Below are positions 473-34,048 of a stretch of 34,048 nucleotides of DNA, in pieces; the stretch's first letter is position 1; each line of letters starts with the position of its first letter. The notes under the pieces are model-generated. The model was given only the letters and a program-made list of their open reading frames with translations, did not search any database and was not told the DNA's origin. The stretch is from contig JBBDIH010000132.1 of assembly GCA_040880505.1 (NCBI GenBank), positions 1 through 34,048 of the forward strand, in the 5' to 3' direction. Both the position numbers and the translations under genes were made by a program. The stretch comes from Minisyncoccota bacterium (lineage in GTDB: Bacteria; Patescibacteriota; Minisyncoccia; UBA6257; GWB1-50-10).

Positions 473-2236
473 TTACCGACTCCATCCCGACAAAAAATAG
501 CGAAGTGTGAACATCAGGTTGGTATTTTTGTCGTCTTTCAAATGTCTTTGCCAACGATTATCCAATGATGTGAGCCTTAAATCTGCCTGAAGTTCTAAAT
601 TCCAGGGCAGAAATAGGAGTGAATGAAATCCATATCGTAATTCAATTTCATGCAGCGCATGCATTCTTGCTGATTCCCGGAATTGCACACTTCTGAAATA
701 CTCTTTGTTATCAAAAAGTCGGTCTTCATGCCATGCAATCCGGGTGAATGAGGCCCCAATCATTCCCAAAGGATGATAGAGTGAAAGTTTTGCATGTTGT
801 GCAGATGATCCGGGGCCGATACCGGCTCCCAAAAATTGCCCTTTTTGAGTATATCCCTGGATCACATGTTCATCTGTGTACCAGGTATTTCGATCATCTC
901 TAAACTGCGAACTAATCGATGAATTCTCAAGGGTTGACAATTCTGTATTCAGAACTAATTTCATATTTTTTGGCAGAGAAAAACGTTTCAAGAGCCCTAT
1001 TGTATAAGCTCTATTGAGCTCCGGTTCTGCCAACAAATCCCTGATTGTACGCTTATCATTGTTGACTCCCACTTCACCATATGCCTCAAACCCGGCCTCC
1101 GGAAAGTGCCATCGAAAAAAGAGAGACGTCATGGCAACATGATAATCGTGCAATGCCACGGTTTCACCATCCTGATTTATTTCTTTTGGGGGTTTAAATG
1201 CCATGAACAGATCCCCTGCTGAAAAAGAAACACCCCTGGCAGCAGAATAGGCAACCCTTGCAACACCCACATTAAGCCCCGGAACTGCATGATGGGAATA
1301 GTTCATGGTAATACCGGTAATATAGCGCCGATCATTTTCCGGATTCTCATCAAAAAACTCTGATTCCTGCAATCCACCCCAAAACCAATAGAATTCAAAC
1401 TGACCGATTTTTGATTGATAGGGTTTTTGAGTACCCAGAAAACCATGCAAAAAACCCGGTGCATTATTTCCAAGAATGAGCGGGTTTTTTAGAGATGGCC
1501 CTATCCAGAGATGTTCATTCGAAATACCTGCCCTTAAACCATAGTGTTGTAATTGAATGACAGAGTTACCCAAATCAAAATTGGATATTGATTCTTCACC
1601 AAATCGCTGAGGGGCATCAATCCAGGTCAGTTGCATAGCGTATCGAGATAAGCCGGGTTTTTTAGGTGCCCCGGTTATTTCTAAAAAATCATTTTGGTTA
1701 TATACAAAAGCAGGCCGAAAGGCTATTTTTAAAGGGCCGTTTTCATATCCAATACCCATTGAAAAGAGTGTGTTATTACCTACCCCCTGCCAAAGAGCAC
1801 CGGTATTTTCTCCAACATCCAGTTGGTTATTGTGTGACAGTAATAATGATGGTGAATAGATCTTTAACTTATCTGAGAAAATCGTTGGTGAAGCTGAACT
1901 TCTGAACCAGTTATGATCCTGCCATGGATGGGAAACAGGCAATTCTCCTTGTGCGTATTGCGAGTTCGACGAACGAAAATTCCATGTAATATTGCCTATT
2001 GCATTTTGATCTTCGGGTATGACGCGGAGATAGTGTTCTAATGGGTCGTTTATGGTGAGGGATTGGGCGTGGGTTGAGGTTGAGGTTAAGGTTAAGGTTG
2101 AGGTTAAGATTGAGATTAAGATTAGGTAGTTTAGGAGTTTAGGAGTTGAGGAGTTTAGGGGATGTTGAGGGTTTAGGGTTGGGGGTTTAGGGTTTAGTTT
2201 GTTTTTTGATGTGAAAATTTGGCCAATTTTCTTCAT
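473..2236 (-). CDS. Capsule assembly Wzi-family outer-membrane beta-barrel protein (paralog 1)
   Basis: Signal peptide ending THA|Q; GALWQGxGxN, WIGPxxxNPLILGNNAPGF and GQxLGAGIGPG motifs; aromatic C-terminal strand. Start is either ATG 2236 (hairpin loop) or ATG 2329 (ATGA overlap with the upstream stop); both are in frame. Confidence 0.75.
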   Translation of the reverse strand: MKKIGQIFTSKNKLNPKPPTLNPQHPLNSSTPKLLNYLILISILTSTLTLTSTSTHAQSLTINDPLEHYLRVIPEDQNAIGNITWNFRSSNSQYAQGELPVSHPWQDHNWFRSSASPTIFSDKLKIYSPSLLLSHNNQLDVGENTGALWQGVGNNTLFSMGIGYENGPLKIAFRPAFVYNQNDFLEITGAPKKPGLSRYAMQLTWIDAPQRFGEESISNFDLGNSVIQLQHYGLRAGISNEHLWIGPSLKNPLILGNNAPGFLHGFLGTQKPYQSKIGQFEFYWFWGGLQESEFFDENPENDRRYITGITMNYSHHAVPGLNVGVARVAYSAARGVSFSAGDLFMAFKPPKEINQDGETVALHDYHVAMTSLFFRWHFPEAGFEAYGEVGVNNDKRTIRDLLAEPELNRAYTIGLLKRFSLPKNMKLVLNTELSTLENSSISSQFRDDRNTWYTDEHVIQGYTQKGQFLGAGIGPGSSAQHAKLSLYHPLGMIGASFTRIAWHEDRLFDNKEYFRSVQFRESARMHALHEIELRYGFHSLLFLPWNLELQADLRLTSLDNRWQRHLKDDKNTNLMFTLRYFLSGWSR

Positions 2237-2336
2237 TTTACAGATCAGAACTCCTAAACTCCTAAACTTCTCAACCCCTAAACTCCACATCTCCTCAACC
2301 TTAACCTTAACCTCAATCTTAACCCTCATCTCAACC
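2072..2336. repeat. Nested inverted-repeat element built from tandem hexamer, octamer and heptamer arrays
   Basis: Left arm: 9x G(G/A)TT(G/A)A-type hexamers (2072-2125), 4x AGTT(T/G)AGG (2128-2159), about 4-5x TTTAGGG-like (2165-2197). Right arm: about 4.5x AACTCCTA-like (2249-2286), about 6x T(T/C)AA(C/T)C (2295-2336). Confidence 0.92.
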
Positions 2337-4113
2337 ACCCCTCTAAATGTTTTCTCACTGTGATTTCAAAACGGGCATTCACTTTGTCGTTGTAGCGAAC
2401 ATAGTTGTGATTCATGATAAAACTCAGATCGAGTGCTGCAGAAATTTCTAAATCATTGGACAGAAAACGGGTTGCACTTAATCCTGCCATCAGCTCGATA
2501 TTACGTACTTCCCAGCGTTCAATATCCGGATCGTTCACTCTGCGAATAGCAGAAAAAAAATCATCCACAAATACATCTGCGTAACTGATTCTCGCAAATT
2601 TCAATCCATAACTTCCTTTTGGGTGAAACAGATGAGTACTCAATACCTGAGTTTGACTTACCTGTCCAATACCGGCACCAACGATCTGTCCCCGGTTGGT
2701 GAATCCAAAATTGGGGTAGCGGTGTATGTACCATCGCCCTAAGGGCCCTGCTTCCCATGGATTACCTCCTCGCGTTAAGGTTGTTCGGTTGGCATTGAGC
2801 TGTGTGGTTTCAATATTTATGGAAAGCAACCTGTTTCCGGAAAGCGACATTGTTTTCAGTAAGCCGAACAGATAGGCCCGATGGTGGTCCGGTTGCAATC
2901 GAAAATCACGCCAATCCATATTATAGTCATTTCGTCCGAATTCACCATACACTTCAAAACCATAACCCGGAAGAACCCAGCGATAGTAGATGGATGCCAT
3001 CTGATTTGATTCTGTCGTTTCAGTACGGTCTTCTTCTGAAGGCAGATTATCTCTTAATACCGCCTCAAAAACTTTTTTTACCTGTGTCCATTTACCTGAA
3101 AACCCGGCCGGATAACGATCCATAAAAAGCCTGTTGAATCCGATGGTTAACCCATTCATAAATGAAGGGGAATAGGCTATATGAAGGGAAACTATGCTGT
3201 TCAGATTGTCACCAGGACGGTCATCCAGCCAATCCGATTTCTGAAGGGCACCATATTGATATTTAAACTCGAAATCACCAATCGGTGACACCAAGGGGCG
3301 ATAGGTAGCCAGATGAACATGTTTAAAGCCCGGCGCATTATAACTGAAAAAAAGCGGATTATGGATCGCAGGTCCGGTCCAGAACCGTGCATTGGAGAAT
3401 CCTGCTTTCAATCCCCACATCCGCAGTTCAGCATAACTGTCTCCAGGGTCAAACCAAGAATACGGATCGGGGCCGAATCTGCGAACATTGTCAATCCTAC
3501 GTATCGGAGTGGAATATTCAAAAACCCCCGATGGCATTTGCAGATCTCCCAAATCAAAATCAGCATTTTGAACAAAGCCTACTTGCGGTTGAAACCGAAT
3601 ATGCAACGGCCCCCAATTGGCCAAAATACCTGCTGAAAGAGCCGTATTATACCCTTTTCCTTGCCAGATCGCACCGTCATTGACACCCCGCGGAAGCGTG
3701 GAATTCCACGACTGAAACCATACCGGTTCAATCAATGCATACCGGATGCCGGCCGGCCCTTCCTTTCCTGCATCCAGAAAACGGTTAGTCATCAACTGCC
3801 AAGGATGTATTGTTTCGTCATTAATCTTTCGTGATGGAGTAAAAGGCCTTAGAGTAAAGGAAGCCGTTTCATCTACAGTTCCATTTAACTGAAGCAGCCT
3901 GTAATAATACTCCAACGGATCTCCTGTCGGCAGGTCGGATTTTATTTGGGCGTTGATTACCGTTGGGAAGAATAGGAGTGATATGAGGAAGCATAGCTTT
4001 TTGATCTCAGATTGGAGATTGGAGATTGGAGATCTCAGATGTGTCAACTCAAAACTAAACCATAAACACTTCTCAGATCGCATATCTCCAATCTGAAATC
4101 TGAGATCAATCAT
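2326..4113 (-). CDS. Capsule assembly Wzi-family outer-membrane beta-barrel protein (paralog 2)
   Basis: Same motifs as paralog 1 (GAIWQGKGYN, WTGPAIHNPLFFSYNAPGF, RGQIVGAGIG); signal peptide ending INA|Q. Start uncertain: ATG 4116/4113 overlapping the wzz stop, ATG 4083, or TTG 4047. Confidence 0.75.
   Translation of the reverse strand: MIDLRFQIGDMRSEKCLWFSFELTHLRSPISNLQSEIKKLCFLISLLFFPTVINAQIKSDLPTGDPLEYYYRLLQLNGTVDETASFTLRPFTPSRKINDETIHPWQLMTNRFLDAGKEGPAGIRYALIEPVWFQSWNSTLPRGVNDGAIWQGKGYNTALSAGILANWGPLHIRFQPQVGFVQNADFDLGDLQMPSGVFEYSTPIRRIDNVRRFGPDPYSWFDPGDSYAELRMWGLKAGFSNARFWTGPAIHNPLFFSYNAPGFKHVHLATYRPLVSPIGDFEFKYQYGALQKSDWLDDRPGDNLNSIVSLHIAYSPSFMNGLTIGFNRLFMDRYPAGFSGKWTQVKKVFEAVLRDNLPSEEDRTETTESNQMASIYYRWVLPGYGFEVYGEFGRNDYNMDWRDFRLQPDHHRAYLFGLLKTMSLSGNRLLSINIETTQLNANRTTLTRGGNPWEAGPLGRWYIHRYPNFGFTNRGQIVGAGIGQVSQTQVLSTHLFHPKGSYGLKFARISYADVFVDDFFSAIRRVNDPDIERWEVRNIELMAGLSATRFLSNDLEISAALDLSFIMNHNYVRYNDKVNARFEITVRKHLEGWLR
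4001..4109. repeat. Inverted repeat of GAGATTG-type heptamer arrays (38-bp arms, 33-nt loop)
   Basis: 4001-4038 ttgatct-cagattg-gagattg-gagattg-gagatct-cag versus the reverse complement of 4072-4109 ttgatct-cagattt-cagattg-gagatat-gcgatct-gag; 32/38 match by hand count. Confidence 0.9.
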
Positions 4114-5344
4114 CATCTTCCACTGCTTCGGGCTTATACGCCTGATAAAGCCTATTGATAGTAACATACCCTGCGCCCCAGATGAAACCTATCAGGACTG
4201 ATATTATGGTTGTGCTGACCGGATTGGGGCGAACCGGGCGTGATGGTACTTGTGCGGGATCTACTTCGGTAAAAAGCGGGGTATCTTCACGTAACCTCAT
4301 TCGGGTTTCTTCTACCTGGCGTGACCAAGTGCTATAGATATTGAATGCGAGGTCGTAATCATTCTGAAGCCTCTGGCGTTCAATCTGTGCCATGGCGGTC
4401 AGGTTGCCACGATTGCGGTCAGTAAAATCAGCCAGTGCTATCTGAGCCTGTTCATATCGTTCACGACTCACCTCATACTGCTCTTCGAGGAAATTAAGCT
4501 GATCACGCGTTTTCCGGACTTCAAAATTGATCATTTCCTGCATCAGGATATCAGTAGCCAGAGATGCGAGATCGGCAGCCGCATAAGCATCGGGCATTCG
4601 GGCTGAGACTTTCATAACTCCATCTTCATTTAAAATGACGATACGATCTGCAAGTTCTTCAATGATTCCATTCATGCCTGATTTAGGTACAAAAAAGGGC
4701 CTTCGCATTCGAACATCATCCTCTACAACCGGATTGTCCTGTGACATCAACTCCTCTTCCGATCTATTTTCTTCATTGTCAGACGTGATGATCTCCTCTT
4801 CTGCAGGCAATTGAACCGAAGCCGGATTCATGAAAGAGAGCAACCTTCTTGGAAAATTAATGATCGTCCTTAAAGAGCTAATGATAAATGGATCCTGATA
4901 CACATTCCGGAAATAGTCATAGGCGGACATCTCTTCGTATTGATAAAAACGGAGCGGTTCTTCGGCAAGTTTGGAACCCACCGGATATGTGGAGATCAGC
5001 ATGGGAAGCATGCTCTCCGAAACTAATTGTCCGCCCATACCGCCGGGAATATCATTCAGGTTAATCCCGGCCAGCCCGGCCAGTCCACCCAGGTTGCCGC
5101 TAACACCGCCGGCCCCTGCTCTTGTATAGGTCAGGATTGAATTTTCAGCCTCATACTCTTTCCCCATACTGTAATCGATGATCAGTCCCAAAACAAGGGT
5201 CACAGCCACGACAATCAGGATTCGGTTTTTTTCACCCCACAGAAGGGAGAAGAGCTGTTTGATTTTTACGATTAGTTCACCAATGGTTATTTCATCGTTG
5301 TAGATTTCATTTACGGTTTTGTCTGATTTATTATTCTTACTCAC
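4106..5344 (-). CDS. wzz: Polysaccharide co-polymerase / chain-length determinant (Wzz/GumC-like, GNVR-type C-terminus)
   Basis: N-terminal DEITIGEL plus TM helix, GGLAGLAGINL motif, coiled-coil region, VDPAQVPSRPVRP followed by a C-terminal TM helix; GTG start. Confidence 0.82.
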   Translation of the reverse strand: MSKNNKSDKTVNEIYNDEITIGELIVKIKQLFSLLWGEKNRILIVVAVTLVLGLIIDYSMGKEYEAENSILTYTRAGAGGVSGNLGGLAGLAGINLNDIPGGMGGQLVSESMLPMLISTYPVGSKLAEEPLRFYQYEEMSAYDYFRNVYQDPFIISSLRTIINFPRRLLSFMNPASVQLPAEEEIITSDNEENRSEEELMSQDNPVVEDDVRMRRPFFVPKSGMNGIIEELADRIVILNEDGVMKVSARMPDAYAAADLASLATDILMQEMINFEVRKTRDQLNFLEEQYEVSRERYEQAQIALADFTDRNRGNLTAMAQIERQRLQNDYDLAFNIYSTWSRQVEETRMRLREDTPLFTEVDPAQVPSRPVRPNPVSTTIISVLIGFIWGAGYVTINRLYQAYKPEAVEDDD

Positions 5345-5410
5345 GCATAGGTTTTTAGAGATTCTTCAGGTAGTACTACAATTTCTATGATCCTAAACAG
5401 ATCAAACGGA

Positions 5411-5440
5411 CTAAAAATAATAAAATTTTAAGACTAACAA
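5411..5440 (-). promoter_or_regulatory. Possible Bacteroidota-type sigma70 promoter upstream of the wzz-wzi-wzi block
   Basis: Minus strand TTG-N18-TATTTTTAG resembles the -33 TTG / -7 TAnnTTTG consensus. It lies in an AT-rich intergenic gap, so it may be chance. Confidence 0.25.
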
Positions 5441-5517
5441 GAGTGTAAAATTTTTCATGCTACACTAAATGATATTTTATCATAGTCAAGGATAAAATCA
5501 AAAATAGTGAAAAATGA

Positions 5518-6654
5518 TCACTTCTCATTTTCACTATTTTCTGCAAGCACCTCTTCATAAACCTTATATGTCTGTTCAAACATTCTGTCGAAAGTAAAGT
5601 GATCTTCATAACGTTTCCGGCCGGCTTTTCCCATTTTTTGCCTTAAACCTGCATCCTCAATCAACAATTTCAATTTTCCTCTTAACATACCAACATCACC
5701 TCTGGCAATCGAAAAGCCGGTTTCACCTTCTACAATCGCTTCCGCCGCGCCGCCTACATCCGAAACGATTACAGGTAATCCGGCACGCATAGCCTCAAGT
5801 GTAGATCGGGGGAACCCTTCCCAGTTTGAGATGAGAGTAAATATCTGAGATTTGGACAATATCTCTGCTACCTCCTCACTTCGGCCGTAAAATGTAATAT
5901 GATCAAGACATCCAAATTGGCCTGCAACTTTCCGGATTTCATGAAGCAACGGGCCATCTCCAACCAGGTGCAGATGATATCCTGTCAAATTTTTTAGTGC
6001 TTTAAGCAAAGTAATATGATCTTTTGGCTGATCGAACCTGGCAGTCATACAAATATTTACAGGTGCAGATTTTTCTGGATATGCCATCAAAAAAGACTCT
6101 ACATCGGGCATTCCATTATGTATAGTCTTCAATAAACCTTTCTGAACAGGAAGTTGATACAATCCAATTGAACAATCATAATCTGAAACACAAATGATAG
6201 AATCCGATTTTTTTGCAACAATTCCCTCAAGATTCTTGAATAACCATCTCTTGAATCCATTTTTACCACCTGTAAACGACCATCCGTGCGCTGTAAAGAT
6301 CACCGGTATTCCAAGTGAATGTGCTGCAAGACGGCCCAGAAAACCAATTTTTGAAGAATGTGCTGAAACAATATCCGGATTCAAATTCCGAATCAACTTC
6401 TTCAGTTCTCTATAAACCTTTACATCTTTTAGTGGTCGAATCTCCCGTTCAAGTTCAGTAATTGAATGATAGGTGATGTGTAGTTCATTCAAGTGATCGG
6501 CAAAATATCCTTCTTTCCCAAGTAATACTATCGGTTGTTCACCAGTATCCATCAATTTCAAACAGAGATCTCGAACATGAATACTTGAACCGCCAATGGT
6601 ATCGGACCTTGTTAATAGGAAAAGTATTTTTATTGGTCGACCTGTAGTGTTCAA
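5518..6654 (-). CDS. GT4 glycosyltransferase
   Basis: HSSKIG, FTAHGWSF, ARFDQPKDH and the EX7E motif EGFPRSTLEAM...SDVGG. Confidence 0.92.
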   Translation of the reverse strand: MNTTGRPIKILFLLTRSDTIGGSSIHVRDLCLKLMDTGEQPIVLLGKEGYFADHLNELHITYHSITELEREIRPLKDVKVYRELKKLIRNLNPDIVSAHSSKIGFLGRLAAHSLGIPVIFTAHGWSFTGGKNGFKRWLFKNLEGIVAKKSDSIICVSDYDCSIGLYQLPVQKGLLKTIHNGMPDVESFLMAYPEKSAPVNICMTARFDQPKDHITLLKALKNLTGYHLHLVGDGPLLHEIRKVAGQFGCLDHITFYGRSEEVAEILSKSQIFTLISNWEGFPRSTLEAMRAGLPVIVSDVGGAAEAIVEGETGFSIARGDVGMLRGKLKLLIEDAGLRQKMGKAGRKRYEDHFTFDRMFEQTYKVYEEVLAENSENEK

Positions 6655-6821
6655 CTAAAAAAATTTAAATATCTATTATTCACAGGCATCAACACATACA
6701 TGAACTGATATACACACCTATTTGATTATGTTAATTTGCAACTCATCATACTAACGCAATATTACACACGATGATATAAGTTCATAATGTAGCCATATTA
6801 AAGAGCATGACACTTAAGTAG

Positions 6822-7508
6822 CTATTTTTTAGCTATAATGAATATTTCCTTTTCTGGCCTAATTATTTGCAATGTATTTCTTATTATTTTGTAAGCTAAT
6901 TCATTCATATTTAATTTATGACTTAACATAGCAGCATATCTATCGTATCCAGTTCTCAACACCTTAACATCATTTATGTTGAATCCACATTTCATTATTA
7001 AATTAGATAATGTTTGAGGTGTCCAAGAAAATATATGCGCATTGATATCATTTATATTTATCTGTGTAGAAATATCTCTTTCAAATGGCACTACCAATAT
7101 TAATATTCCATTTTTTTTCAAACTTTTATATATATTTGAAATAGTATCACATGGCGATGGCACATGCTCTAAAACATGATGGCAAATACATACATCAAAT
7201 GAGTCATCCGGTATCTCATTTTCTACCTCAATAAACTTAATATTATTTTTTATATACTTGTCCTTGTTAACACTTGAAATGTCATAAGCGAATTTATGTT
7301 TATTTTTGAGTTTATATAAATTCCACCCAGCACCAGCGCCATACTCTAAAATAACATCGTTATCTTTTATATACCTTTCAAATTTTTTCGCTCTGACTTC
7401 TGAAACCCAAGGGATTAGTTCATCATGCAGTTTTCGTTTTATAAGATGATATTTATCGCCCGAACTTCCAATATAATGGTTCTTTATATTTTTTTTAAAA
7501 TCTGTCAT
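6822..7508 (-). CDS. Class I SAM-dependent methyltransferase
   Basis: Motif I ILEYGAGAG; FDVCICHHVLEHV; LKKNGILILVVP. Confidence 0.88.
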   Translation of the reverse strand: MTDFKKNIKNHYIGSSGDKYHLIKRKLHDELIPWVSEVRAKKFERYIKDNDVILEYGAGAGWNLYKLKNKHKFAYDISSVNKDKYIKNNIKFIEVENEIPDDSFDVCICHHVLEHVPSPCDTISNIYKSLKKNGILILVVPFERDISTQININDINAHIFSWTPQTLSNLIMKCGFNINDVKVLRTGYDRYAAMLSHKLNMNELAYKIIRNTLQIIRPEKEIFIIAKK

Positions 7509-7523
7509 TTACTATAAATTTCA

Positions 7524-8690: not shown

Positions 8691-8735
8691 AATACAATGC
8701 AGACAAATTGTGTAGCAGGTTCATACACTCTTATA

Positions 8736-10115: not shown

Positions 10116-10335
10116 TCTAAACCGTGTATGGATATTCCATATGGATGATTTGCAATGATAATATTAATTGCTCAACAGGATCATATTATTTGTAAAACTG
10201 TTAACCTTCATAAGTTTATTATCATGTTTAAATACTAATTTAAGTTCATTTTTTATTTTATGATAGAAAGTTGATATATTTTATTTCTTTTTCTTTTAGG
10301 AATTTTCAGATATTTGAAGATAAATCTCGAATGAA

Positions 10336-11301: not shown

Positions 11302-11415
11302 ACTACAATATTATTGTATTGTTGATAATGAAAAATCTTAAAATTAATGATATTAATAAGTTAGAGTATCCTATATCCTCTCCCAACAGGTTAAACACTG
11401 AACTTGATCGCTATC

Positions 11416-11443
11416 TGAATTACTCCCCAATAAGTTAGACCAC
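11416..11443. mobile_element. Isolated IS3-family-like terminal inverted repeat
   Basis: tgaattactccccaataagttagaccac has the TG start, C-run and GTTAGAC layout recalled for IS3-family ends; no transposase is attached. Confidence 0.4.
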
Positions 11444-11542
11444 AGGATAAGCCATAAAAGTTTGAATTTAAGCTACACAGCGATACAGTTCAAATGGTTT
11501 TTTTAGTTAATATCCAGATGTACTGTAAGATTTTCTTTTTTT

Positions 11543-11676
11543 TGACCCTCTCAAAAGCAGAGAAGTGGGCTAATTTTTAAATGTATTGTTTTATGTGTTA
11601 CTTCGGGGTTTAACCATCAAGAGAACTGTGAGGATGGAAACTCTTATATTCTTCTATCCAAGCTTCAATTTTTAAA
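11543..11676 (-). mobile_element. IS3-family (IS407-group) right-end remnant
   Basis: Minus strand reads KIEAWIEEYKSFHPHSSLDG*TP (transposase C-terminus), clearly homologous in DNA to 25500-25566. The end tgacc...tcaaaagcagagaa matches tgacc...tcaaaagtaaagaa at 25420-25459. Confidence 0.72.
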
Positions 11677-21916: not shown

Positions 21917-21926
21917 TATCTGAACC

Positions 21927-23096: not shown

Positions 23097-23156
23097 ATTC
23101 CTAATAAAAACAAATTAATATATATTTCAATCTTTTGAAGAAAATAACTCAATAAA

Positions 23157-24464: not shown

Positions 24465-24475
24465 TACGTTATGAT

Positions 24476-25369: not shown

Positions 25370-25419
25370 ACAACTTGTATCTTAGTTAGGATGTTTTCTA
25401 CCACAGTCGGGGATAGGTA

Positions 25420-26202
25420 TGACCTACTCCCCATTTATGTACCGGTCAAAAGTAAAGAATCGGACTTATTTTGAAGATATTGTTCAATGTACTGCTCCGG
25501 GGTTAAATCATTAAGAGAAATGTGAGGACGGAAGCTGTTATATTTTTCCATCCAGGCTCTAATCTTCTTCCTAACATGTTCAAGTGACAGGAACCAATGA
25601 AGTTTAAACACTCATTACGAAAGCTTCAATTGAAGGATTCAATATAGGGATTATCGGTTGGTTTGCTAGGTATTGAAAAGTCTAATGTCACTTGATTATC
25701 ATAAGCCCACTGGTCCAAAGCCTTTGAGATAAATTCACTTCCGTTGTCTACTTGAAATCGTGCAGGTACCTGATCACATCGACCGCACAGTCGCTACATA
25801 ACATCGGTAACATCGATGAGCCAAAGTGGGTCTGCTTCTTTCGTTTTACCGGTCTTAAAGCTTTTTATGAGAACCTCCAGAAGCATATGTCTGTCCAAGG
25901 AAAGATCTGCGACTAAATTCTTGAGCTGGCTGTTTACCCCCTCCAACTGGCGAAGCCGTCGAAGTTCGGTGGTTCCCAGTCCGCCAAATTTTTCCTCTAG
26001 TTATATAAGGTTGCCTCTCTGATACCCATCTTCCGGCAAATTTCCGCGACCGGAGTACCGATCTGGGCCTGATGCAGGGCAAAGACAATTTGTGATTCGA
26101 TATATTTTGATTTTTTCATAGCCATATTGATATCGTTTAATGTATCAAAATTGTCCTAAAACTCTAATTAAGATTGGAACAGTTTTTTTTTGGGGGAGGT
26201 CA
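25420..26202 (-). mobile_element. Degenerate, internally deleted IS3-family (IS407-group) element
   Basis: Imperfect terminal IRs tgacctactcccc (25420) and gggggaggtca (26202). Broken OrfA: MKKSKY/ESQIVFALHQAQIGTPVAEICRKMGIREATLYN*../GGLGTTELRRLRQLE...LVADLSLD. OrfB 3' half: VDNGSEFISKALDQWAY...KPTDNPYIESFN*SFRNECLN. Only 783 bp long. Confidence 0.9.
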
Positions 26203-26206
26203 ATTA

Positions 26207-27058
26207 CTAATCTTCATCGTTTTGAAAAAGATATATACTATGCTTTTTAAAACGTGGAGTATACTCAATTGGTGAAAAATATTTTCCCCACATATCAACT
26301 ATCACGTCACGATCTATAAATGTATCAGTGGCATCATAATTTAAGTTTTTATTACCTCTCCTTTCAAAGTATCCTGGTTTTACAAGTTTTTCATCTACCA
26401 ATCTAGGTTCCCAATTAATTAAGTTAATGCTAGGTTCATAATAGGTTACAGCCACATATCCACCTGGTTTTGAAATTCTTTTTAGTTCTTTTATCCATTC
26501 CTCTTGTTTAGCATATGGGATGTGAATGAATACTGCAATCGCATATATGACATCAAAATAATTATTATCATAGGGTAAAGGTGGTTTAGGGTTTGTAAAT
26601 GATATTTTTGCCCTATTACCATGTTTCTTTTGAGACCATTGAATACCTTCTGGAGTAATATCACAACCGTAAAGCGATGCGTTAAAAGGAAACCAATTAA
26701 TTAATAGGCGACTAAATGCAACTCCGAAATCCAAAACTGTACTCACCTTGTCTAGTTGTATGCTATTTTTTTCAAGTGTCTTGAATAATTCGTACGCATC
26801 TCTATAACCTTGTCCGAAAAAGAAGTCTGGGATAGCATGTTTTGAATATTGGTGTTTTTTGACTAAATCTATTGGTGGAACATTCTTTTCGTCCGTTTGT
26901 ATTGGATCCATTTGAAGATTATACTTACTATAAATACTTTGTAATTGTTTTACCCAATATTCTTTTTCCTCTTTAATCTCATTGTAATCGATATTATTAA
27001 TTTTATTTAATTTATAGCCAAATATTTTACCGATTATTTTATTAAATATTTTTTTCAC
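26207..27058 (-). CDS. Class I SAM-dependent methyltransferase
   Basis: VLDFGVAFSR, YGCDIT, PPLPY...FDVIYAIAVFIH and ELKRISKPGG motifs. Confidence 0.85.
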   Translation of the reverse strand: MKKIFNKIIGKIFGYKLNKINNIDYNEIKEEKEYWVKQLQSIYSKYNLQMDPIQTDEKNVPPIDLVKKHQYSKHAIPDFFFGQGYRDAYELFKTLEKNSIQLDKVSTVLDFGVAFSRLLINWFPFNASLYGCDITPEGIQWSQKKHGNRAKISFTNPKPPLPYDNNYFDVIYAIAVFIHIPYAKQEEWIKELKRISKPGGYVAVTYYEPSINLINWEPRLVDEKLVKPGYFERRGNKNLNYDATDTFIDRDVIVDMWGKYFSPIEYTPRFKKHSIYLFQNDED

Positions 27059-27217
27059 TTTTTTTTCACCATTTTTTATTTATAGTTTTTATTTTCAAAT
27101 AATTTAATTTCAATAATTTTACTTAATCTTTTTTTGTTTGATTTTAGTATTGCCTGAAATGCGGTAGTACCGGTTTTGTTAATGCCGATATGAATGAATT
27201 AGTATACTCCCAGAACA

Positions 27218-28084
27218 TTATAAATTCTGGTTTTTTAATTTCTTCCTTTGCACTTGCTCAACACCCAATATCTCCTTTTTTTTAAATGTCAATGCAAGAG
27301 ATACATTTCTTAAGTCACGAACCAACCTTCTCATTCCATCAGGTTCAAGTGAAGCGGAGTGGTCAGTGCCCTTCCAAGTGCGATCTAGCGTAAAGTGCCG
27401 TTCAATTACCTCTGCTCCCAACGTCAGAGCTGCTATGTCAGCTGCTATTCCAAGATGATGTCCTGAAAACCCAACTTTTTTAACGACTTTACCATATGTA
27501 TTTTTTAATCTAGCAATTTCATATAAGCAGATATCTTCAAATGCTACTGGATAACCTGATGTACAACTATATATGACAACTTGATCATTTCGATGTTGTT
27601 TTTCAAAAAATGCTATAATTTCCTCTTCCTCTTTGCGTGTCGTCATTCCAAAAGATACATGAATTTCACCTGAATATTCTTTACATAATACTTCGAGCAT
27701 AGAAAAATTCGTGTTGCATGCAGATGGCACTTTAATACGAATTGGATGTAAAGAGGCAATTTCTCTTGCAGAAGTCACATCCCATACAGAAGTACCATAT
27801 TCAATATCGTAATCTTCACACCACGCTTTGAGCTGTCTGTGCTGATCTAAATCTAATTCTAAAAATTCCCTGTGCTCACCATAAGTTTTTCCATAGGAAA
27901 ATACGGGATTAGGATGAGGTGTATTATACTGTTCTTCGGTTAGATACTCACGATTATTACGTTTCTGAAATTTAACGGCATCTACTTTGCAAAATTTTGC
28001 AGCCATTTTGATCATCTCATGGGCAATCTCCATGTCACCTTTGTGATTACAACCGATCTCGGCTACTACTTTTGGATTTTTCAT
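27218..28084 (-). CDS. neuB: Short NeuB-family nonulosonate(-9-phosphate) synthase lacking the SAF domain
   Basis: VAEIGCNHKG, KFQKR, CTSGYP, GFSGHHLG and ERHFTLDRTWKGTDH motifs; 288 aa, ends before the SAF domain. Confidence 0.88.
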   Translation of the reverse strand: MKNPKVVAEIGCNHKGDMEIAHEMIKMAAKFCKVDAVKFQKRNNREYLTEEQYNTPHPNPVFSYGKTYGEHREFLELDLDQHRQLKAWCEDYDIEYGTSVWDVTSAREIASLHPIRIKVPSACNTNFSMLEVLCKEYSGEIHVSFGMTTRKEEEEIIAFFEKQHRNDQVVIYSCTSGYPVAFEDICLYEIARLKNTYGKVVKKVGFSGHHLGIAADIAALTLGAEVIERHFTLDRTWKGTDHSASLEPDGMRRLVRDLRNVSLALTFKKKEILGVEQVQRKKLKNQNL

Positions 28085-28270
28085 CTATACTCTAAGTTGG
28101 TTTATTTTTTACTATAAATAGCTTATTGACCTGAAAGTTTTTACAGGCTGTAGTTCTCTATAAGAATCTCAATTCTGAAAGAAAGAAGCAAAATCTTAAA
28201 TTCTCTATTCAAAAAATTATTTCTAAGTATTGCAAAATGGACAAAGAACATCTTTGAAATGCCTTGAACT

Positions 28271-30067
28271 TTATATTTTCTGTAGATCTACCATTTTACG
28301 AAATATACCTGATACACCAATCAGTTCCTGGTACGTTCCAACACGTTCAATTCTTCCTTTATCTATCACCACAACACGGTCTGCATGTTTGATGGTAGAT
28401 AGTCTATGTGCAATTATAACAATTGTGTACTGTCCCTTTAATTGATCTAGATTATCCTGAATCTCTTTTTCCGTTTCAGAATCTAATGCAGAAGTAGCTT
28501 CATCAAGAAACAGAAAGTCGACCTCCTTGAATAATTCACGGGCAATGGATATTCGCTGTTTTTGACCACCACTTAGATTAATCCCATTACTTCCTAACAG
28601 TGTCTTCTCTTTCTCAGGCAATCCCTGAACAAAGTCGTAAATTCTTGCACGCTTCAAAGCTTTAACAAATCTTTCACGGCTTCCTTCTGAATCATCATCC
28701 CAAAAGGTAACATTATTGTAGATCGTATCACTGAAAATAACCGGTTCTTGTGTAATGTATCCGATTCTTTGTTGAAATGTGGGCATCCGAATCAGTGTTG
28801 AATCCAAACCATCAATTTTCATCATTCCGATGCTGGGAGTTAGTAATCCACTCAAAATGTTCATTAAGGTAGTTTTTCCGGAACCACTTTCCCCAACCAG
28901 AGCGACCGTCTCATTCTTGTGTATTGTTAATCTAATATCATGTAGAACAGGGATATTTCCATAGCTGAAAGAGATATCTTTTAGTTCGATGATCTGATCT
29001 AATGAGGTAAATGGTCTTTCACCTGTACGTTCTCGATCTTTTTTTAACTCGTACGTAAATTCTTCCAGATTCTCGAGAGAACCGGACATTCCCAGAAATT
29101 GATTCCAAGATCGTTGTAGAGACATTACTGATCCCAAAGCACGATAAAAAAATAGGATGCTCAATAAAATGAGACCTAAGCTGCCGCCCAGAAAATTCAC
29201 CTGAATCAAAATAACAGCTACTACTACGCCGATCATCATTGGCTCACGGATACCGGTCATGATAGCACCTAACACTCCAATCTTTCGCTGTGAAGTCTCA
29301 ATACCATAAACCATTGATATTAGTTTTTTTGCATACTTGTTCAGGTTTCCGGTTGCCTTTAAATATTTAAAAAAAGCAACCTTCTGTATTAATAATCCCT
29401 GGAAACGATGATTATCCTGCGTGAGTTTCTTGGAGTACTGTTTTGTGGCTGTATAAAGCCTGTTAAAGAGAAGATTCGTTAAGGCACCACCCACAATCAC
29501 AAGAAGTGCAAACTGTGCATTTGCCATAAAAGCAAGTACAGTATATACCAATACCAACACACTGTACTGCATCAGCCCTATATAGTAGTTTAGAGCAGCA
29601 GAAACTCTTGCAATCTCCCCCGACATAGTATTCTGAATACGGCCGGCATCTGCATTTACAAATGCCTCATAATCATATGTCGAAAGTAAATTAATATTTT
29701 CTTCTCTCAGATTTCGGATGAAATACTGACGATAGATCACACTCTTGTACTGCTCTAAAAATTTCATTAACCCTTTTGCAGTGAAAAAAAAGAGCATGGT
29801 CAGGAGGACGAGGGTTAGATTAAGATTGAAATTGAGTGCTTCCAGACCTTCAACAAGAAATGCCAAATTCCCCATCTGTTCCGATGCAGCACTCCCATCA
29901 GCTGCCACAAATTCTAATAGCGGTAGAAACATCGCTAAGCCAAAGCCGTCCATGATCCCCACCATCAGGCTAAGGGCCAATATCACGAACAAACGGTAGC
30001 TCAAGTGCTTATAGAAATAGGCGAAGTTGGTGAAGGTTTTTGCGATAAAGGTGCGGAGGATGGTCAA
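28271..30067 (-). CDS. ABC transporter permease/ATP-binding fusion (MsbA/PglK-like glycan flippase)
   Basis: N-terminal TM domain; Walker A GESGSGKT, signature LSGGQKQR, Walker B FLFLDEATSALD, AHRLST; TTG start. Confidence 0.92.
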   Translation of the reverse strand: MTILRTFIAKTFTNFAYFYKHLSYRLFVILALSLMVGIMDGFGLAMFLPLLEFVAADGSAASEQMGNLAFLVEGLEALNFNLNLTLVLLTMLFFFTAKGLMKFLEQYKSVIYRQYFIRNLREENINLLSTYDYEAFVNADAGRIQNTMSGEIARVSAALNYYIGLMQYSVLVLVYTVLAFMANAQFALLVIVGGALTNLLFNRLYTATKQYSKKLTQDNHRFQGLLIQKVAFFKYLKATGNLNKYAKKLISMVYGIETSQRKIGVLGAIMTGIREPMMIGVVVAVILIQVNFLGGSLGLILLSILFFYRALGSVMSLQRSWNQFLGMSGSLENLEEFTYELKKDRERTGERPFTSLDQIIELKDISFSYGNIPVLHDIRLTIHKNETVALVGESGSGKTTLMNILSGLLTPSIGMMKIDGLDSTLIRMPTFQQRIGYITQEPVIFSDTIYNNVTFWDDDSEGSRERFVKALKRARIYDFVQGLPEKEKTLLGSNGINLSGGQKQRISIARELFKEVDFLFLDEATSALDSETEKEIQDNLDQLKGQYTIVIIAHRLSTIKHADRVVVIDKGRIERVGTYQELIGVSGIFRKMVDLQKI

Positions 30068-30069
30068 AA

Positions 30070-30101
30070 GGTTTAGGAGTTTAGAGGTTTAGGAGTTTAT
30101 A
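30070..30101. repeat. Four AGTTTAGG-type octamers (single arm) across the wzz-fragment stop and ABC-gene start region
   Basis: ggtttagg-agtttaga-ggtttagg-agtttata; same unit as 2128-2159. Confidence 0.8.
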
Positions 30102-30916
30102 ATCCTTTTTTTAATTGCTGTATATGCAATTCTTGCAAAAAACCAGAAAATTCCCATAAAACCTCCCAGAATAATGGAAGCAACTACGATTAAGTTTGAA
30201 CTTCCAACGGGGGAATGTGGCAAGTTGGGTTTTTGAAGTTTACTGAAAACGGGCGTCTCTTCTTGCAGGCGTAATCGGGAATCTTCAAGCCTTTGTGCAA
30301 GATTGTTGTATAGATTGTAGGTCAGACTTCGTTCGTTTTGGAGTCTTTCTTCTTCGATTCGGGCAAGGGCTGTCATCTGTCCACGGTTTTCATCCTGAAA
30401 CCGGGCTAATGCACGCTGAGCTTCTTCATAGCGCTCTTCAATATCCCGGTACTGATGTTCAACATACTCCAGGTTTTGTCGCGCTTTTTCACTCCGGTAG
30501 TTGATCACATAATCCTGTATCTGTTCAATCAGCAGTGCATTTAACTCAGCAGCAGCTTTTGGATCCGGCATTCGTGCCGATACATTGATAAAGCTCTGGT
30601 CAAATTCAACAGTCACTCTTGTTCGCATTGCAGAGATCGCTCTGCGAACATTTGAGTTTAAAATCAATATTTCCCCTTCTGCATCAATATTAAAATCTGG
30701 TATAGTTTCAGCATCTTCCCTGAACAAGTTTCGAAATCCTCTATAACTTGTGACAGGAAGCCGAAGGGTATAGTTTCTCACCCCTCTGTAAAACCTATCT
30801 CTAAAAGGTTCTTCATAAATATCTATATAATATTCATAGAGCATCACCCTTCGACCCAACGACTCAAACTCCACTTCATTCAACAACAGATTGTGCTGAA
30901 ATTCCACACTTTCTAT
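30089..30916 (-). pseudogene. wzz: 5'-truncated duplicate of the Wzz-like gene
   Basis: Ungapped homology to 32620-33396 at an offset of 2480 bp, beginning abruptly at IESVEFQH; lacks about 110 N-terminal residues including the first TM helix. Confidence 0.85.
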
Positions 30917-30987
30917 GTGTTGACATATGCACAAATTATAAACTTTCCAGGTTTAACTTGTGTCCAGTTAATTAGGGGGCTGGAATG
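30908..30987 (-). mobile_element. Probable IS3-family left-end remnant fused to the truncated wzz
   Basis: Minus strand ttccagccccctaattaactggacac resembles an IS3 IRL, followed by ATG TCA ACA CAT AGA AAG (MSTHRK, OrfA-like start) running directly into wzz sequence. Confidence 0.45.
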
Positions 30988-31068
30988 AAAGCCAAATTTC
31001 CAGTACCGAGTATTCTTTGAACAATAACTTGTCAGAGATTAACACTTCTCAAAATATTCTTCTAATAA

Positions 31069-31910
31069 TTACTTCCAAATCTTCTTTAGATTAATCCCAA
31101 TTGTTTGCTCCAATTCATTATTGTAAGAAGTAAAATACTGCATTAAATATTCCTTAGAGATATTATCAATTTTATGTTTTTGATATGAGCCCAAAGTAAG
31201 ATTAATTTTATTGACAATTCTTGCTAAGATATTTCCATTGGATAAATATTCTCTTGTTACTTTTCTCAAATATGGTGACACTGGAACTTTAGTGGTGTTT
31301 TTAGATGCTTTATCTATATTTATAAACATTTCAGGGTCAATATTCAAAAAGTTAGCTATCTTTTTCAATTCAACAACTTCATCTTCTATTAAATCCTCAA
31401 ATAAGCAAAAATACATTTGCTCTAGCTTAAAATACATAAGGTAATTATTGACCTGTTCAATATAAATACTTCTTTTAATATATTTTTTCCAAATGTTCTT
31501 TTCTTTTCCATCTAACTCATCTTGAACAGCTTGAGAAAATGTTCTTTTTTCAACACCTTTTTTATAAGCATGCATATAATTAGAAAAAGTCCTTGATACC
31601 GGCTCACGAAAAATCCATATTAGTTTAACCTGTGGATTAAAATTGTAAATTAATTCAGGAATTTCAGGAAGATAAGAGTATGTGGGTGTTTTTCTCCAAG
31701 CAAAGCATCCTTCTGAGAACAATTCTGGGTTAATACTTGATAATACCATTCCCGGCCCTTCTTAAAATTAACGGGATTGTTAAAAAAATGAACCTCCTTT
31801 CTGGGAATACAGATTTGTGGATGTTGTCCCATATAATAACCTAGGGAGGAAGTGCCGGATTTCATAGCGCCTACAATAATAAAATGTGGAAAATTAAATT
31901 CAATTTTCAT
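31069..31910 (-). pseudogene. PAPS-dependent sulfotransferase split by a single-base frameshift
   Basis: The 5'-PSB motif GAMKSGTSSL and KEVHFF are in ORF 31650-31910; KTPTY and the 3'-PB motif REPVSRTFS are in ORF 31069-31749. One extra A in the A5 run at 31689-31693 joins them as GEKTPTY. Confidence 0.88.
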
Positions 31911-32295
31911 AAAACTTTTAAATTTTGTTCAACTAATTTAATGACATCATTCATGGGTTTATCAAAATATTCTCTTGAATTATCAGATGGCAATGAATCA
32001 ATCAATGATGCCAGTTCTTACTCCATACTGGAGAATAAGAATTTATTTCTCTACTCACCACCATTCGTAACTGATCCTCAAATCTTTGAGCCATTTAGTA
32101 TGCATATTCTTTAGTATGCATATTCTGAGCTATTAAACCAATGATACTCTCAATTTTATGCTCATTATTAGGGTACTCTTTTAAAATTCTGTGACAAATA
32201 GGAAAAGCTATTAACTCAATTATCCAGTTTCGCCAAACTGGTATCAAAGATTTCATATTTCCTTTCATATATATTGAGCTATTTTCAATAAACAA
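31907..32295 (-). pseudogene. Heavily decayed gene remnant upstream of the sulfotransferase
   Basis: Broken frames with several stops end ...VEQNLKVL*, in an ATGA overlap with the sulfotransferase start; contains a 16-bp tandem duplication. Confidence 0.4.
32094..32125. repeat. Exact 16-bp tandem duplication
   Basis: tttagtatgcatattc repeated twice. Confidence 0.9.
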
Positions 32296-32325
32296 TTATC
32301 TATTAGGTATAAAAAAACAATTTTA

Positions 32326-32565
32326 TCACAATTCCCAATATGAAGGCTCTCCAAATGCAGCACTTATTTTATCACTCTTAGGCAGAGCATAAGGCATGAG
32401 CATTACAAAGATCTCCAGCCTCTCTTTTGGCTCAAGTTCTTTCATTGTCTCAGGCAGATTCTGGATCACTTCCAGCTTAAACTCTTTTCTATTCTTCGTG
32501 TTTTTCTTTTCCCCATAATATAATTGTTGATTAAACACCGCAATATACCTTAACTCAGTGTCCAC
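32326..32565 (-). CDS. Small helical hypothetical protein or gene fragment
   Basis: LPETMKELEPKERLEIFVMLMPYALPK looks protein-like and resembles small Bacteroidota hypothetical proteins (from memory); the N-terminus looks degraded. Confidence 0.35.
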   Translation of the reverse strand: MDTELRYIAVFNQQLYYGEKKNTKNRKEFKLEVIQNLPETMKELEPKERLEIFVMLMPYALPKSDKISAAFGEPSYWEL

Positions 32566-32580
32566 TCAAAAGTAGCAGGT

Positions 32581-33726
32581 TCACTTTTCCTTAATAGCAC
32601 CGAATACATTTTTTGCAAAGATCCAGAAAATTCCCATGAGACCTCCCAGAATTATGGAAGCAATTACGATTAAGTTTGAACTCCCTACAGGTGAATGTGG
32701 TAAGTTGGGTTTTTGCAGTTTACTGAATACAGGGGTCTCTTCCTGAAGGCGTAGTCGGGAATCTTCAAGCCTTTGAGCGAGATTATTATACAAATTATAA
32801 GTTAGGATTCGTTCGTTTTGGAGTCGTTCTTCTTCTATTCGTGCAAGAGCAGTCATCTGTCCGCGGTTTTCATCCTGAAACCGGGCAAGAGCTCGTTGTG
32901 CTTCTTCGTAGCGTTCTTCAATTTCCCGGTATTGTTGCTCAACATACTCCAAATTTCGCCGTGCCTTTTCACTCCGATAATTGATCACATAATCTTGTAT
33001 CTGTTCAATCAACAGTACATTTAACTCAGCCGCAGCTTTCGGATCCGGCATTCGTGATGTCACGTTGATAAAACTTTCATCAAATACTACAGAGACTCTG
33101 CTCTGCATTTCGGAGATTGATCTTCGGATATATGGGTTTAACATCAGTATTTCCCCTTCTGCATCAATATTAAAGTCCGGAATGGTTTCAACCTGATCAC
33201 TGAATACGTTTCGAAATCCTCTGTACAATGTAATCGGAAGCTTGATCGTATAATTCACTATCCCTCTATAAAATCTATCTCTAAAAGGTTCTTCATATAT
33301 CTCTATAAAATATTCATAAAGCATCACCCTCTGGCCTAACGACTCAAACTCCACTTCATTCAACAACAGATTGTGCTGAAATTCCACACTTTCAATAATC
33401 CGGGGATACAGATTTGCAGACAAGGTTCCCGGATCATTCACACCAGCTCCTCCTCCAAACTGCTGAAGCAGCCTCATGTTCTGTGATGTCTGCTGTTGCG
33501 CTTCTTGCAACAATATCGCTTCCGACTCATACTCCTCCGGCCCCGTCAAATAATGAAACAATCCCAGCAAAAAGAACACCAGTGTAAATATCGCAATCGT
33601 TTTACGTCCGTTCCAGATTGTTTCGATCAGGTCTAATAAGTCGATTTCATCTTCATTATTTGGAGAATCGAGATACTGTACAGGAACGTATTGGATTTCA
33701 GGTTTGGGGTCTTGAGCTTTGCTCAT
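32581..33726 (-). CDS. wzz: Polysaccharide co-polymerase / chain-length determinant (Wzz-like)
   Basis: EDEIDLLDLI plus TM helix, coiled coil, proline-rich KPNLPHSP and a C-terminal TM helix. Confidence 0.88.
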   Translation of the reverse strand: MSKAQDPKPEIQYVPVQYLDSPNNEDEIDLLDLIETIWNGRKTIAIFTLVFFLLGLFHYLTGPEEYESEAILLQEAQQQTSQNMRLLQQFGGGAGVNDPGTLSANLYPRIIESVEFQHNLLLNEVEFESLGQRVMLYEYFIEIYEEPFRDRFYRGIVNYTIKLPITLYRGFRNVFSDQVETIPDFNIDAEGEILMLNPYIRRSISEMQSRVSVVFDESFINVTSRMPDPKAAAELNVLLIEQIQDYVINYRSEKARRNLEYVEQQYREIEERYEEAQRALARFQDENRGQMTALARIEEERLQNERILTYNLYNNLAQRLEDSRLRLQEETPVFSKLQKPNLPHSPVGSSNLIVIASIILGGLMGIFWIFAKNVFGAIKEK

Positions 33727-33728
33727 TC

Positions 33729-33759
33729 GGGTTTAGAGTTTAGGGTTTAGGGTTTAGGG
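33729..33759. repeat. GGGTTTA heptamer array (single arm) forming the end of the four-helix-bundle gene
   Basis: gggttta-gagttta-gggttta-gggttta-ggg; encodes LNPKP* and ends 2 nt before the wzz ATG. Confidence 0.88.
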
Positions 33760-34048
33760 AATTGTGTAGACCGCCAATTAAGCCCGTAATTTCTTCCATT
33801 TTTTCACGAAGAATAACATATTCGTCATCTTGTAAATATTTCAATCGCTTTGCTATGATTAATTGACTAACCACTTCAATAGATGAACTGTAAGCTATAA
33901 CATAAAACCGCTTTTGATCTTTTTTACTTTTCCTCGAACTGCCTTCTGCAATATTTGAAGCTATCGATACAGCCGCTCTTCGTATCTGACTTGTCAACCC
34001 ATACTTTTCCTCACTCGGAAACTTCCTGGTAATTCTATAAAGCTCACA
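33740..34048 (-). CDS. Four-helix-bundle protein (23S rRNA IVP / bAvd-like family), 5' end outside the window
   Basis: The frame is open to the window edge: CELYRITRKFPSEEKYGLTSQIRRAAVSIASNIAEGSSR...; FPxxExYGLxSQxRRAAVSIxSNIAEG is the family signature. Confidence 0.93.
   Translation of the reverse strand, partial: CELYRITRKFPSEEKYGLTSQIRRAAVSIASNIAEGSSRKSKKDQKRFYVIAYSSSIEVVSQLIIAKRLKYLQDDEYVILREKMEEITGLIGGLHNSLNPKP

Follow-up and report, generated by a model that had tools for sequence, protein, structure and literature searches.

We analysed a window of 34,048 nucleotides (nt), the whole of contig C132 of a 1.36-Mb assembly (315 contigs) assigned to a Minisyncoccota bacterium. Four tracts of short tandem repeats lie at gene junctions of this window, and one of them forms the 3' end of a gene for a four-helix-bundle protein of the IVP family (PF05635). 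We propose, with a probability of roughly three in four, that small insertion cassettes built on the IVP gene form a family, and that the four tracts are their arms and remains. A full cassette would consist of an IVP gene of ∼120 codons between two inverted arrays, each of ∼30 nt and usually made of 4–5 tandem heptamers, sometimes of 6- or 8-mers, with the upstream arm G-rich and typically AG(T)-anchored on the coding strand. It would occupy precisely the gap from one stop codon to the following start codon, and because it fills this gap, neighboring open reading frames (ORFs) would often end or begin within the arms. In the window, 33729-34048 would represent the 3' part of a full cassette that the contig end truncates, 4001-4109 and 2072-2336 would be 'empty' hairpins (arms without the gene, the latter compound), and 30070-30101 and 2164-2197 would be solo arms of the 3' type. 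At the level of sequence, the comparisons below show how the cassette is built, that it is specific to IVP genes and widespread, and that it is present or absent at exact spacers.

A metagenome scan with the IVP protein gave 80 loci at 41–63% identity, with GC contents of 0.33 to 0.67. At most of these loci, Tandem Repeats Finder detected a short array before the gene and, directly after it, one with the reverse-complementary sequence. To score the arms, the 220 nt upstream of each gene were aligned to the reverse complement of its 3' end plus the 220 nt downstream; a score of at least 30 was the threshold, and other ORFs of at least 100 amino acids from the same loci served as controls. Among the 73 of 80 fetched loci with enough flank, 50 scored at least 30, 40 at least 35 and 32 at least 40; shuffled flanks gave a mean score of ∼17 in a first pass. 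Three of 148 control ORFs reached 30, and all three were further PF05635 genes. Overall, complementary arms were present at 53 of 76 IVP genes vs. 0 of 145 non-IVP ORFs. In an independent sample based on a hidden Markov model (HMM), arms scoring at least 30 were found in 20 of 30 loci (from 30 genomes of the phylum of the assembly), and 17 of them had period 7. The initial annotation of this DNA, made from the sequence alone, had described a 'full' element as the gene between two complementary arms and had linked the repeat tracts to the four-helix-bundle gene; both proposals are borne out by these relatives. A bias of the scan toward arrays, through the C-terminal peptide encoded by the repeats, was considered and rejected, since the units differ among loci and the HMM-based replicate is free of it.

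Period 7 was observed in 45 of the 50 scored arms of the metagenome loci, and 6- or 8-mers were seen at times. Array length peaks near 30 nt with no decay (41 of 83 period-7 arrays are 28–35 nt long), and the median length in the independent sample is 30 nt. At the 50 loci the 5' arm ends 0–124 nt before the ATG, and the 3' arm starts from 37 nt inside the ORF to 91 nt past its end; it overlaps the ORF end in 19 of 50, as it does in the window. On the coding strand, G exceeds C in 41 of 50 5' arms. A phased AG was detected in 30 of 45 5' arms (vs. CT in 8), and the 3' arms mirror this pattern with CT in 25 and AG in 13; the commonest phased triplets are AGT and TAG. The independent sample was phased in the same way (AG in 7 of 9 upstream arrays, CT in 12 of 17 downstream arrays). 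Of 45 5' arms, 24 have a stop in every frame, vs. 11 of 45 on the antisense strand, which is suggestive.

The closest relative (locus L007, 55% identity) lies between dTDP-sugar genes and carries GTTTAG-type units upstream and AACCCTA units at the 3' end of the gene. L007 thus has the same TTTAGGG/CCCTAAA-type unit on both sides, which is the arrangement that had been predicted for the present contig. In three genomes with several copies (G048, G261, and G246), IVP copies that are 30–62% identical each have their own unit, with their own two arms matching, and 13 of the 20 copies score at least 30. The single pair of IVP copies with 92% identity has one unit in common, and in a pair with 62% identity the two units have a common GAAT core. 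Because arms of unrelated sequence stay complementary and periodic, these comparisons argue that the pairing itself is selected for or is maintained by a copying process.

Orthologous junctions with and without a cassette were found on plasmids. A Picosynechococcus PCC 7003 plasmid carries a cassette that is separated from its neighbors, cas10 and cmr3, by 35 and 36 nt. On pAQ6 of PCC 7002 these two genes, which are 92% identical to those of PCC 7003, are 12 nt apart with no trace of a cassette, and the last few cas10 codons differ between the two where the arm begins. In an operon conserved on Nostoc plasmids, here called A-B-C-D, N. punctiforme pNPUN02 and Nostoc C052 have a cassette exactly in the B-C spacer (TAG^gttATG); in ATCC 53789 pNsp_c it lies between C and D and has different, GGGGAAA-type arms; and in pNsp_b and N. 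flagelliforme it is absent. Among the matches listed for records of this operon (15 of 23), the gene is present under the match in 6 and not in 9. Nostoc C057 has no IVP gene in the operon and shows an 'empty' hairpin at the A-B junction, the unit of which (TCAGGAG) is that of the N. punctiforme cassette. In N. edaphicum a cassette lies between nrdB and nrdA on the opposite strand, and Calothrix NIES-4105 has the corresponding empty site. Judged from these junctions, the cassette is gained or lost as a unit.

The comparison of orthologous junctions, which the initial annotation had suggested, has in this way yielded full, empty-site and empty-hairpin alleles in Nostoc and Picosynechococcus plasmids. 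Empty inverted pairs with the local unit were also found 13 times in the metagenome loci (several overlap in L038, and one is duplicated in L044/L046), and G048 has empty inverted pairs beside two full copies. With the hairpins and solo arms of the window and the hairpin of C057, they agree with the earlier claim that 'empty' and 'half' forms exist.

In the window, every tract fills a stop-to-start gap on the minus (coding) strand (Table 1). The stop codon of the second Wzi-like gene (2326) lies inside an arm of hairpin 1, and that of the Wzz/GNVR gene (4106) at the first bases of hairpin 2. At the solo arm, a truncated Wzz ORF stops at 30089 and the ABC exporter gene starts with TTG at 30067. 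The IVP stop (33740) falls inside the array at 33729-33759, 14 nt before the Wzz ATG at 33726. Tandem Repeats Finder and the ORF list therefore confirm the placement of the four tracts at stop/start junctions that had been read from the sequence, including the coincidence of one arm with the 3' end of the four-helix-bundle gene. The polarity described earlier also holds on the coding strand, where the G-rich arm comes first and the C-rich arm second, next to the downstream gene.

Table 1. Repeat arrays, putative cassette elements and adjoining genes in the 34,048-nt window.
Feature	Coordinates	Strand	Details
6-mer array GGTTGA/GGTTAA	2072-2124	+ (reading)	Up to 8.8 copies; Tandem Repeats Finder
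8-mer array TTAGGAGT	2122-2159	+ (reading)	Tandem Repeats Finder
GTTTAGG-type units	2129-2197	+ (reading)	Tandem Repeats Finder
Array AACTCCTA	2249-2286	+ (reading)	Tandem Repeats Finder
Array CCTTAA	2293-2336	+ (reading)	Tandem Repeats Finder
Array AGATTGG	4009-4033	+ (reading)	3.6 copies, 100% matches; Tandem Repeats Finder
Array GTTTAGGA	30071-30099	+ (reading)	3.6 copies; Tandem Repeats Finder
Array GGGTTTA	33729-33759	+ (reading)	4.4 copies; Tandem Repeats Finder
Putative 'empty' compound hairpin 1	2072..2336	-	Outer 6-mer arms 2293-2336 / 2072-2124
Hairpin 1, middle	2249-2286 / 2122-2159		8-mer arms; loop 2198-2248 (51 nt)
Hairpin 1, inner (CCCTAAA)-type array	2164..2197	-	Unpaired in the fold
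Putative 'empty' hairpin 2	4001..4109	-	5' arm 4066-4109 (AGATTNN units), 3' arm 4001-4044 (CCAATCT units)
Putative solo C-rich arm	30070..30101	-	(TAAACTCC)-type units, ∼4 copies; Tandem Repeats Finder and ORF list
Putative 3' arm of the IVP cassette	33729..33759	-	(CCCTAAA), 4.4 copies on the coding strand, 31 nt; Tandem Repeats Finder
Wzi-like outer-membrane gene 1	473..2236	-	Pfam PF14052; predicted start
Wzi-like outer-membrane gene 2	2326..3995	-	Pfam PF14052
Wzz/GNVR gene	4106..5344	-	TGA stop is the first triplet of hairpin 2; ORF list and Pfam
ABC exporter gene	28271..30067	-	TTG start right after the solo arm 30070-30101
Wzz chain-length-determinant gene	32581..33726	-	Pfam PF02706; directly downstream of the IVP cassette
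IVP / four-helix-bundle gene	33740..34048	-	PF05635; 5' end cut by the contig end, 102 amino acids remain

An inverted-repeat search matched 2084-2159 with 2261-2336 (76 nt, 75%), 2071-2103 with 2293-2325 (94%), and 2128-2147 with 2249-2268 (100%) in hairpin 1, and 4001-4044 with 4066-4109 (84%) in hairpin 2; it returned no complementary partner within 600 nt for the solo arm at 30070-30101. As sense-strand RNA, the folding energies are −115.1 kcal/mol for 2050-2350 (z −10.1, matched by 0 of 100 shuffles) and −50.8 kcal/mol for 3990-4125 (z −5.1, matched by 0 of 200 shuffles). Hairpin 2 has a 21-nt loop; it starts at the Wzz/GNVR TGA and stops 5 nt short of the signal-peptide codons of the next gene. 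The inner array of hairpin 1 shares unit and orientation with the IVP 3' arm (89.7% over 29 nt by BLAST), in keeping with the earlier observation that units recur between tracts. Hairpin 1 reads as nested elements, with the inner array (2164-2197) as a nested 'half' element. The arm at 33729-33759 has the position, length and period of the 3' arms in related loci. Period 7 is found at this arm and at 4009-4033, and periods 6 and 8 in the other tracts. The remaining Tandem Repeats Finder rows in the window are AT-rich, low-scoring or of a different kind. In the rest of the assembly, comparable non-AT arrays were seen only on the small contigs C5, C71, C98, C180, and C287. Contig C98 has an ATCTGAT array that shares its ending, ...TCTGAGATCAA, with hairpin 2; C287 has (GTTTATGG) in 5.9 copies, and C5 has (CTTTTCA) in 7.3 copies.

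The elements are not innocuous to their neighbors, because upstream ORFs end in the arms and the possible starts of the Wzi-like genes fall within the hairpins. The last codons of Wzi-like gene 2 extend into hairpin 1. Its signal peptide begins right after hairpin 2, with ATC at the expected place of the start codon; the translation contains no in-frame ATG, GTG or TTG between hairpin 2 and the signal peptide, and the nearest in-frame ATG is within the 5' arm of the hairpin. Wzi-like gene 1 has a single in-frame ATG ahead of its conserved part, at ∼2236 in the loop of hairpin 1. A start at this position would have the C-rich arm translated as an N-terminal, signal-peptide-like stretch. In neither Wzi-like gene (473-2338 and 2326-4167) is there a canonical in-frame start between the hairpin and the conserved N-terminus.

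The IVP translation matches Pfam PF05635 at 113.6 bits (cut-off 33.8), with residues 2-92 on profile positions 15-105, and PDB entry 2gsc (XCC0516, five chains in the entry) with an E-value of 1.5e-19. It ends in ...SLNPKP*, and the last six codons and the stop are inside the repeat arm. To our knowledge, there is no catalytic motif in IVP, and no nuclease, recombinase or transposase domain in this 120-amino-acid fold. The R-x3-S-x3-N-x2-E motif is present (...RRAAVSIASNIAEG...); the leading G of the published consensus, GxxRxxxSxxxNxxE (PMC3936711), is not at that spacing. XCC0516, the nearest relative with a solved structure, is described as a homopentameric ring (PMC4990558, citing Lin 2006), and the accessible text of a recent preprint still terms the PF05635 family functionally uncharacterised (bioRxiv 10.1101/2024.02.27.582315). 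An HMM search detected PF05635 in 172 of 301 genomes of 0.4–2 Mb sampled from the phylum of the assembly, a tally that counts one unpublished genome (G194). Several genomes have 10–15 PF05635 matches among the matches listed (15 in G143 and G290, a value that may reflect a scoring cap), and these multi-copy genomes, with up to 15 matches among those listed, are 0.8–1.5 Mb in size. IVP genes are also found within operons such as cas, nrd and capsule loci.

Among the closest known systems are the intervening sequences of rRNA in Leptospira, Coxiella and candidate phyla radiation (CPR) bacteria, which encode the same protein family between complementary termini. In Coxiella, two to three tandem heptamers (GACAGAT) precede the IVP ORF, and their copy number varies between strains; the terminal repeats form a stem, and RNase III cuts at the first repeat (PMC4990558). 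An origin of these intervening sequences from mobile elements has long been suspected (PMC4990558, discussion). The cassettes differ from them in occupying the stop/start spacers of protein-coding operons rather than a 23S or 16S rRNA helix, in having whole arrays of ∼4–5 units as arms on both sides, and in being accompanied by gene-less hairpins and solo arms. Tandem 7-nt intergenic units are likewise known as STRR or heptamer arrays in Calothrix, Nostoc, Xanthomonas (GGGAATC pairs), and Beggiatoaceae (TAACTGA). The published arrays are often convergent stem-loop pairs of variable copy number that adjoin start codons and overlap ORF ends (PMC4692102; PMC4679880). Unlike these, the arrays described here are linked to a gene, and each pair acts as the termini of a single unit.

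REPIN-RAYT elements also have a small gene between inverted hairpin-forming repeats and gene-less copies scattered in the intergenic DNA of the same genome. However, RAYT belongs to the Y1 (HUH) transposases, whereas IVP folds as a four-helix bundle in which no catalytic site is known to us; REPs are fixed palindromes, whereas the cassette arms are tandem arrays with a unit that varies from copy to copy. The bAvd protein of diversity-generating retroelements is a pentameric nucleic-acid binder. It has the same fold and belongs to the same superfamily as IVP (PMC10053308). The window protein matches the bAvd profile PF22296 weakly (29.6, below the cut-off of 40), and there was no reverse transcriptase or template/variable repeat among the window ORFs scanned, the region upstream of the IVP gene being beyond the contig. 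The window element is not a diversity-generating retroelement. IVP genes wedged between cas genes have been noticed earlier, without their arms in the accessible text (PMC3936711). In our search of the full-text literature, which covered neither older subscription literature nor supplements, no paper ties IVP/S23p genes generally to inverted heptamer arrays, and only the paper on Coxiella holds the IVP term and heptamers together in its available text (PMC4990558).

Under the insertion-cassette interpretation, the two arms would pair with each other, as RNA or as single-stranded DNA. By analogy with IVP-bearing rRNA intervening sequences, a transcript through the cassette would form a long duplex for RNase III. 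The empty hairpins may be copies that are non-autonomous or have decayed, and they would now influence where translation of the export genes downstream begins. Because no IVP remnant was detectable in the loops of the empty hairpins, the units they share with full copies are what points to such a descent.

Several further observations weigh against this interpretation. Scores were below the threshold in 23 of 73 and 10 of 30 IVP loci. Any 5' arm of the present copy would lie beyond the contig, which ends at 34048 inside the IVP gene; past this point, one contig of run X2 reaches 40 nt and one RNA contig of X6 reaches 15 nt. No mobility enzyme is encoded in the cassette. A miniature inverted-repeat transposable element (MITE) or a classical transposon would have terminal inverted repeats and a target-site duplication; inverted ends are present in cassettes, and no duplication is evident at the Nostoc B-C junction (TAG / gttATG), where one spacer base differs and which is among the few junctions examined. 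Pairing at the RNA level would be expected to leave an excess of G:U-type mismatches on the sense strand, a trend that the 50 metagenome loci do not follow: the sense strand has 42 G:U-type vs. 67 A:C-type mismatches, with no G:U excess. The antisense fold is more stable than the sense fold in hairpin 1 (−133.2 vs. −115.1 kcal/mol) and just as good in hairpin 2. Neighboring genes share the strand of the cassette in 52 of 67 cases on the upstream side and in 42 of 64 on the downstream side, so that about a fifth to a third of the cassettes are not co-oriented with their neighbors. RNA-level pairing of the operon cassettes is not supported.

The absence of a G:U excess, the antisense folding and the non-co-oriented cassettes keep a single-stranded DNA mechanism of the REPIN or attC kind a live rival. 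In such a DNA-level element, resembling REPIN/RAYT or an integron attC site, one strand of the arms would fold as single-stranded DNA for insertion or excision, IVP would be the specificity factor that binds the arms, and the RNA hairpin would be a by-product. The exact insertion at intergenic spacers, the independent insertions within one Nostoc operon, the opposite orientation of some cassettes (e.g., nrdB/nrdA in Nostoc edaphicum) and the separate unit of each IVP lineage are all consistent with this explanation, as are antisense folds that are equally or more stable. Wobble-type mismatches lean slightly to the antisense strand (67 vs. 42), and this lean could hint that the bottom strand folds. 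On the other hand, no nuclease, recombinase or transposase domain is known to us in the fold and none is encoded in the cassette; Y1-transposase genes (PF01797) were found only on other contigs of the assembly (C68, C162, and C119) and none in the window; and the sole experimental precedent for the arms is RNA cleavage by RNase III (PMC4990558). We regard a purely DNA-level element as possible, although on the unlikely side.

A bolder proposal, which we hold to be somewhat more doubtful still, is that the pentameric IVP ring binds its own arms with one subunit per heptamer, since five subunits would face ∼4.4 heptamers with five AG anchors spaced by 7 nt over ∼30 nt. IVP cassettes would then be unrecognised and very widespread mobile elements, and each IVP lineage would have its own heptamer 'address'. 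Gene-less derivatives would be the source of much of the excess of STRR-type heptamers, and the intervening sequences of rRNA would simply be those copies that had inserted there.

A third explanation is that the tracts are ordinary simple-sequence repeats born by slippage (STRR-like) that pile up in the intergenic DNA of this lineage, next to the IVP gene by chance and at most serving as local terminators, attenuators or mRNA stabilisers. Three of the four window tracts have no adjoining IVP gene, and heptamer arrays, convergent pairs included, have been described in Xanthomonas, Nostoc, and Beggiatoaceae with no reference to IVP: neither the term IVP nor S23p occurs in the accessible text of the two papers (PMC4692102; PMC4679880). 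However, the presence of arms at 53 of 76 IVP genes vs. none of the 145 other ORFs in the same loci argues against chance adjacency. Array lengths that peak near 30 nt without decay, gain or loss of the gene together with both arms at exact spacers, and empty hairpins that share their unit with nearby full cassettes also speak against slippage, and we consider this explanation improbable.

An assembly or binning artefact that produces the repeats or their placement is very improbable, even though the contig ends in the IVP gene, other run contigs share only the array (loose ends at 33729 and 33750) and the assembly looks composite, since contigs of runs X1 and X2 cover the junctions without differing letters and cultured strains have the same architecture on complete plasmids. 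The matching run contigs showed no indels in the arrays and offered no usable ends. One contig of run X2 (depth 5.55) joins 33735 to 30071 with three other letters between, and differs at 33679 and 33682; it may come from a related strain with an 8-mer-type array in place of the heptamer array in front of Wzz, or the arrays may act as recombination joints. Contigs of the X6 freshwater metatranscriptome, 93–96% alike, cover only the IVP gene (33743-34048) and stop at the array. These contigs come from a relative and therefore give no evidence of expression at this locus.

The genes of the window form a capsule/exopolysaccharide locus, and every ORF of at least 200 amino acids is on the minus strand. 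Besides the genes in Table 1, the locus contains glycosyl- and methyltransferases, two NeuB genes with other nonulosonic-acid genes, and sulfotransferase ORFs. A 281-amino-acid ORF at 30089-30934 is an N-terminally truncated copy of Wzz (85% identity to residues 110-380 of the full Wzz), and sulfotransferase ORFs lie between the truncated and the full copy. The ORFs 31069-31749 and 31650-31910 overlap, and a frameshift is possible. The gap that precedes the sulfotransferase region holds an exact 16-nt tandem duplication (2.1 copies, 32094-32126), the sequence of which is unrelated to the junction arrays. Short broken ORFs at 25400-26130 resemble, by eye, translations of both reading frames of an IS3-family transposase.

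GC content is 0.40–0.46 in the export-gene flanks (1-5500 and 28000-34048) vs. 0.27–0.41 in the center (6000-28000), as is usual for capsule loci in which the central part has been swapped. The repeat tracts are confined to the higher-GC flanks, and none is found in the low-GC center. Because of this distribution, it appears that resident elements accumulate in the conserved export modules and that the probably exchanged center is free of them. Neither the window nor four related loci yielded an Rfam family at its gathering score, and no rRNA was found in the window. Orthologues of the locus were not found: a contig scan with Wzz gave one distant match, and the Wzz gene was present in 0 of 40 relatives of the assembly. 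At 1.36 Mb, vs. 0.5–0.9 Mb in 24 genomes of the same family, the assembly is probably composite, and its contigs of at least 8 kb form two tetranucleotide/GC groups, with C132 in the higher-GC one. C132 may be mis-binned; as a counterpoint, IVP cassettes are common in the phylum.

Heptamers are over-represented among bacterial simple-sequence repeats, for which the accessible text of one study stated that no detailed literature was then available (PMC4692102). The cassette may link three loose ends, namely the PF05635 family, this excess of heptamer repeats and the unexplained origin of rRNA intervening sequences. Mobility of the cassette would mean that annotation pipelines misread gene ends and starts at many junctions, and that operon expression may be cut or gated at such junctions. 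The idea is open to direct tests in cultured pairs with and without a copy at one junction (PCC 7003 vs. PCC 7002, and the Nostoc plasmids).

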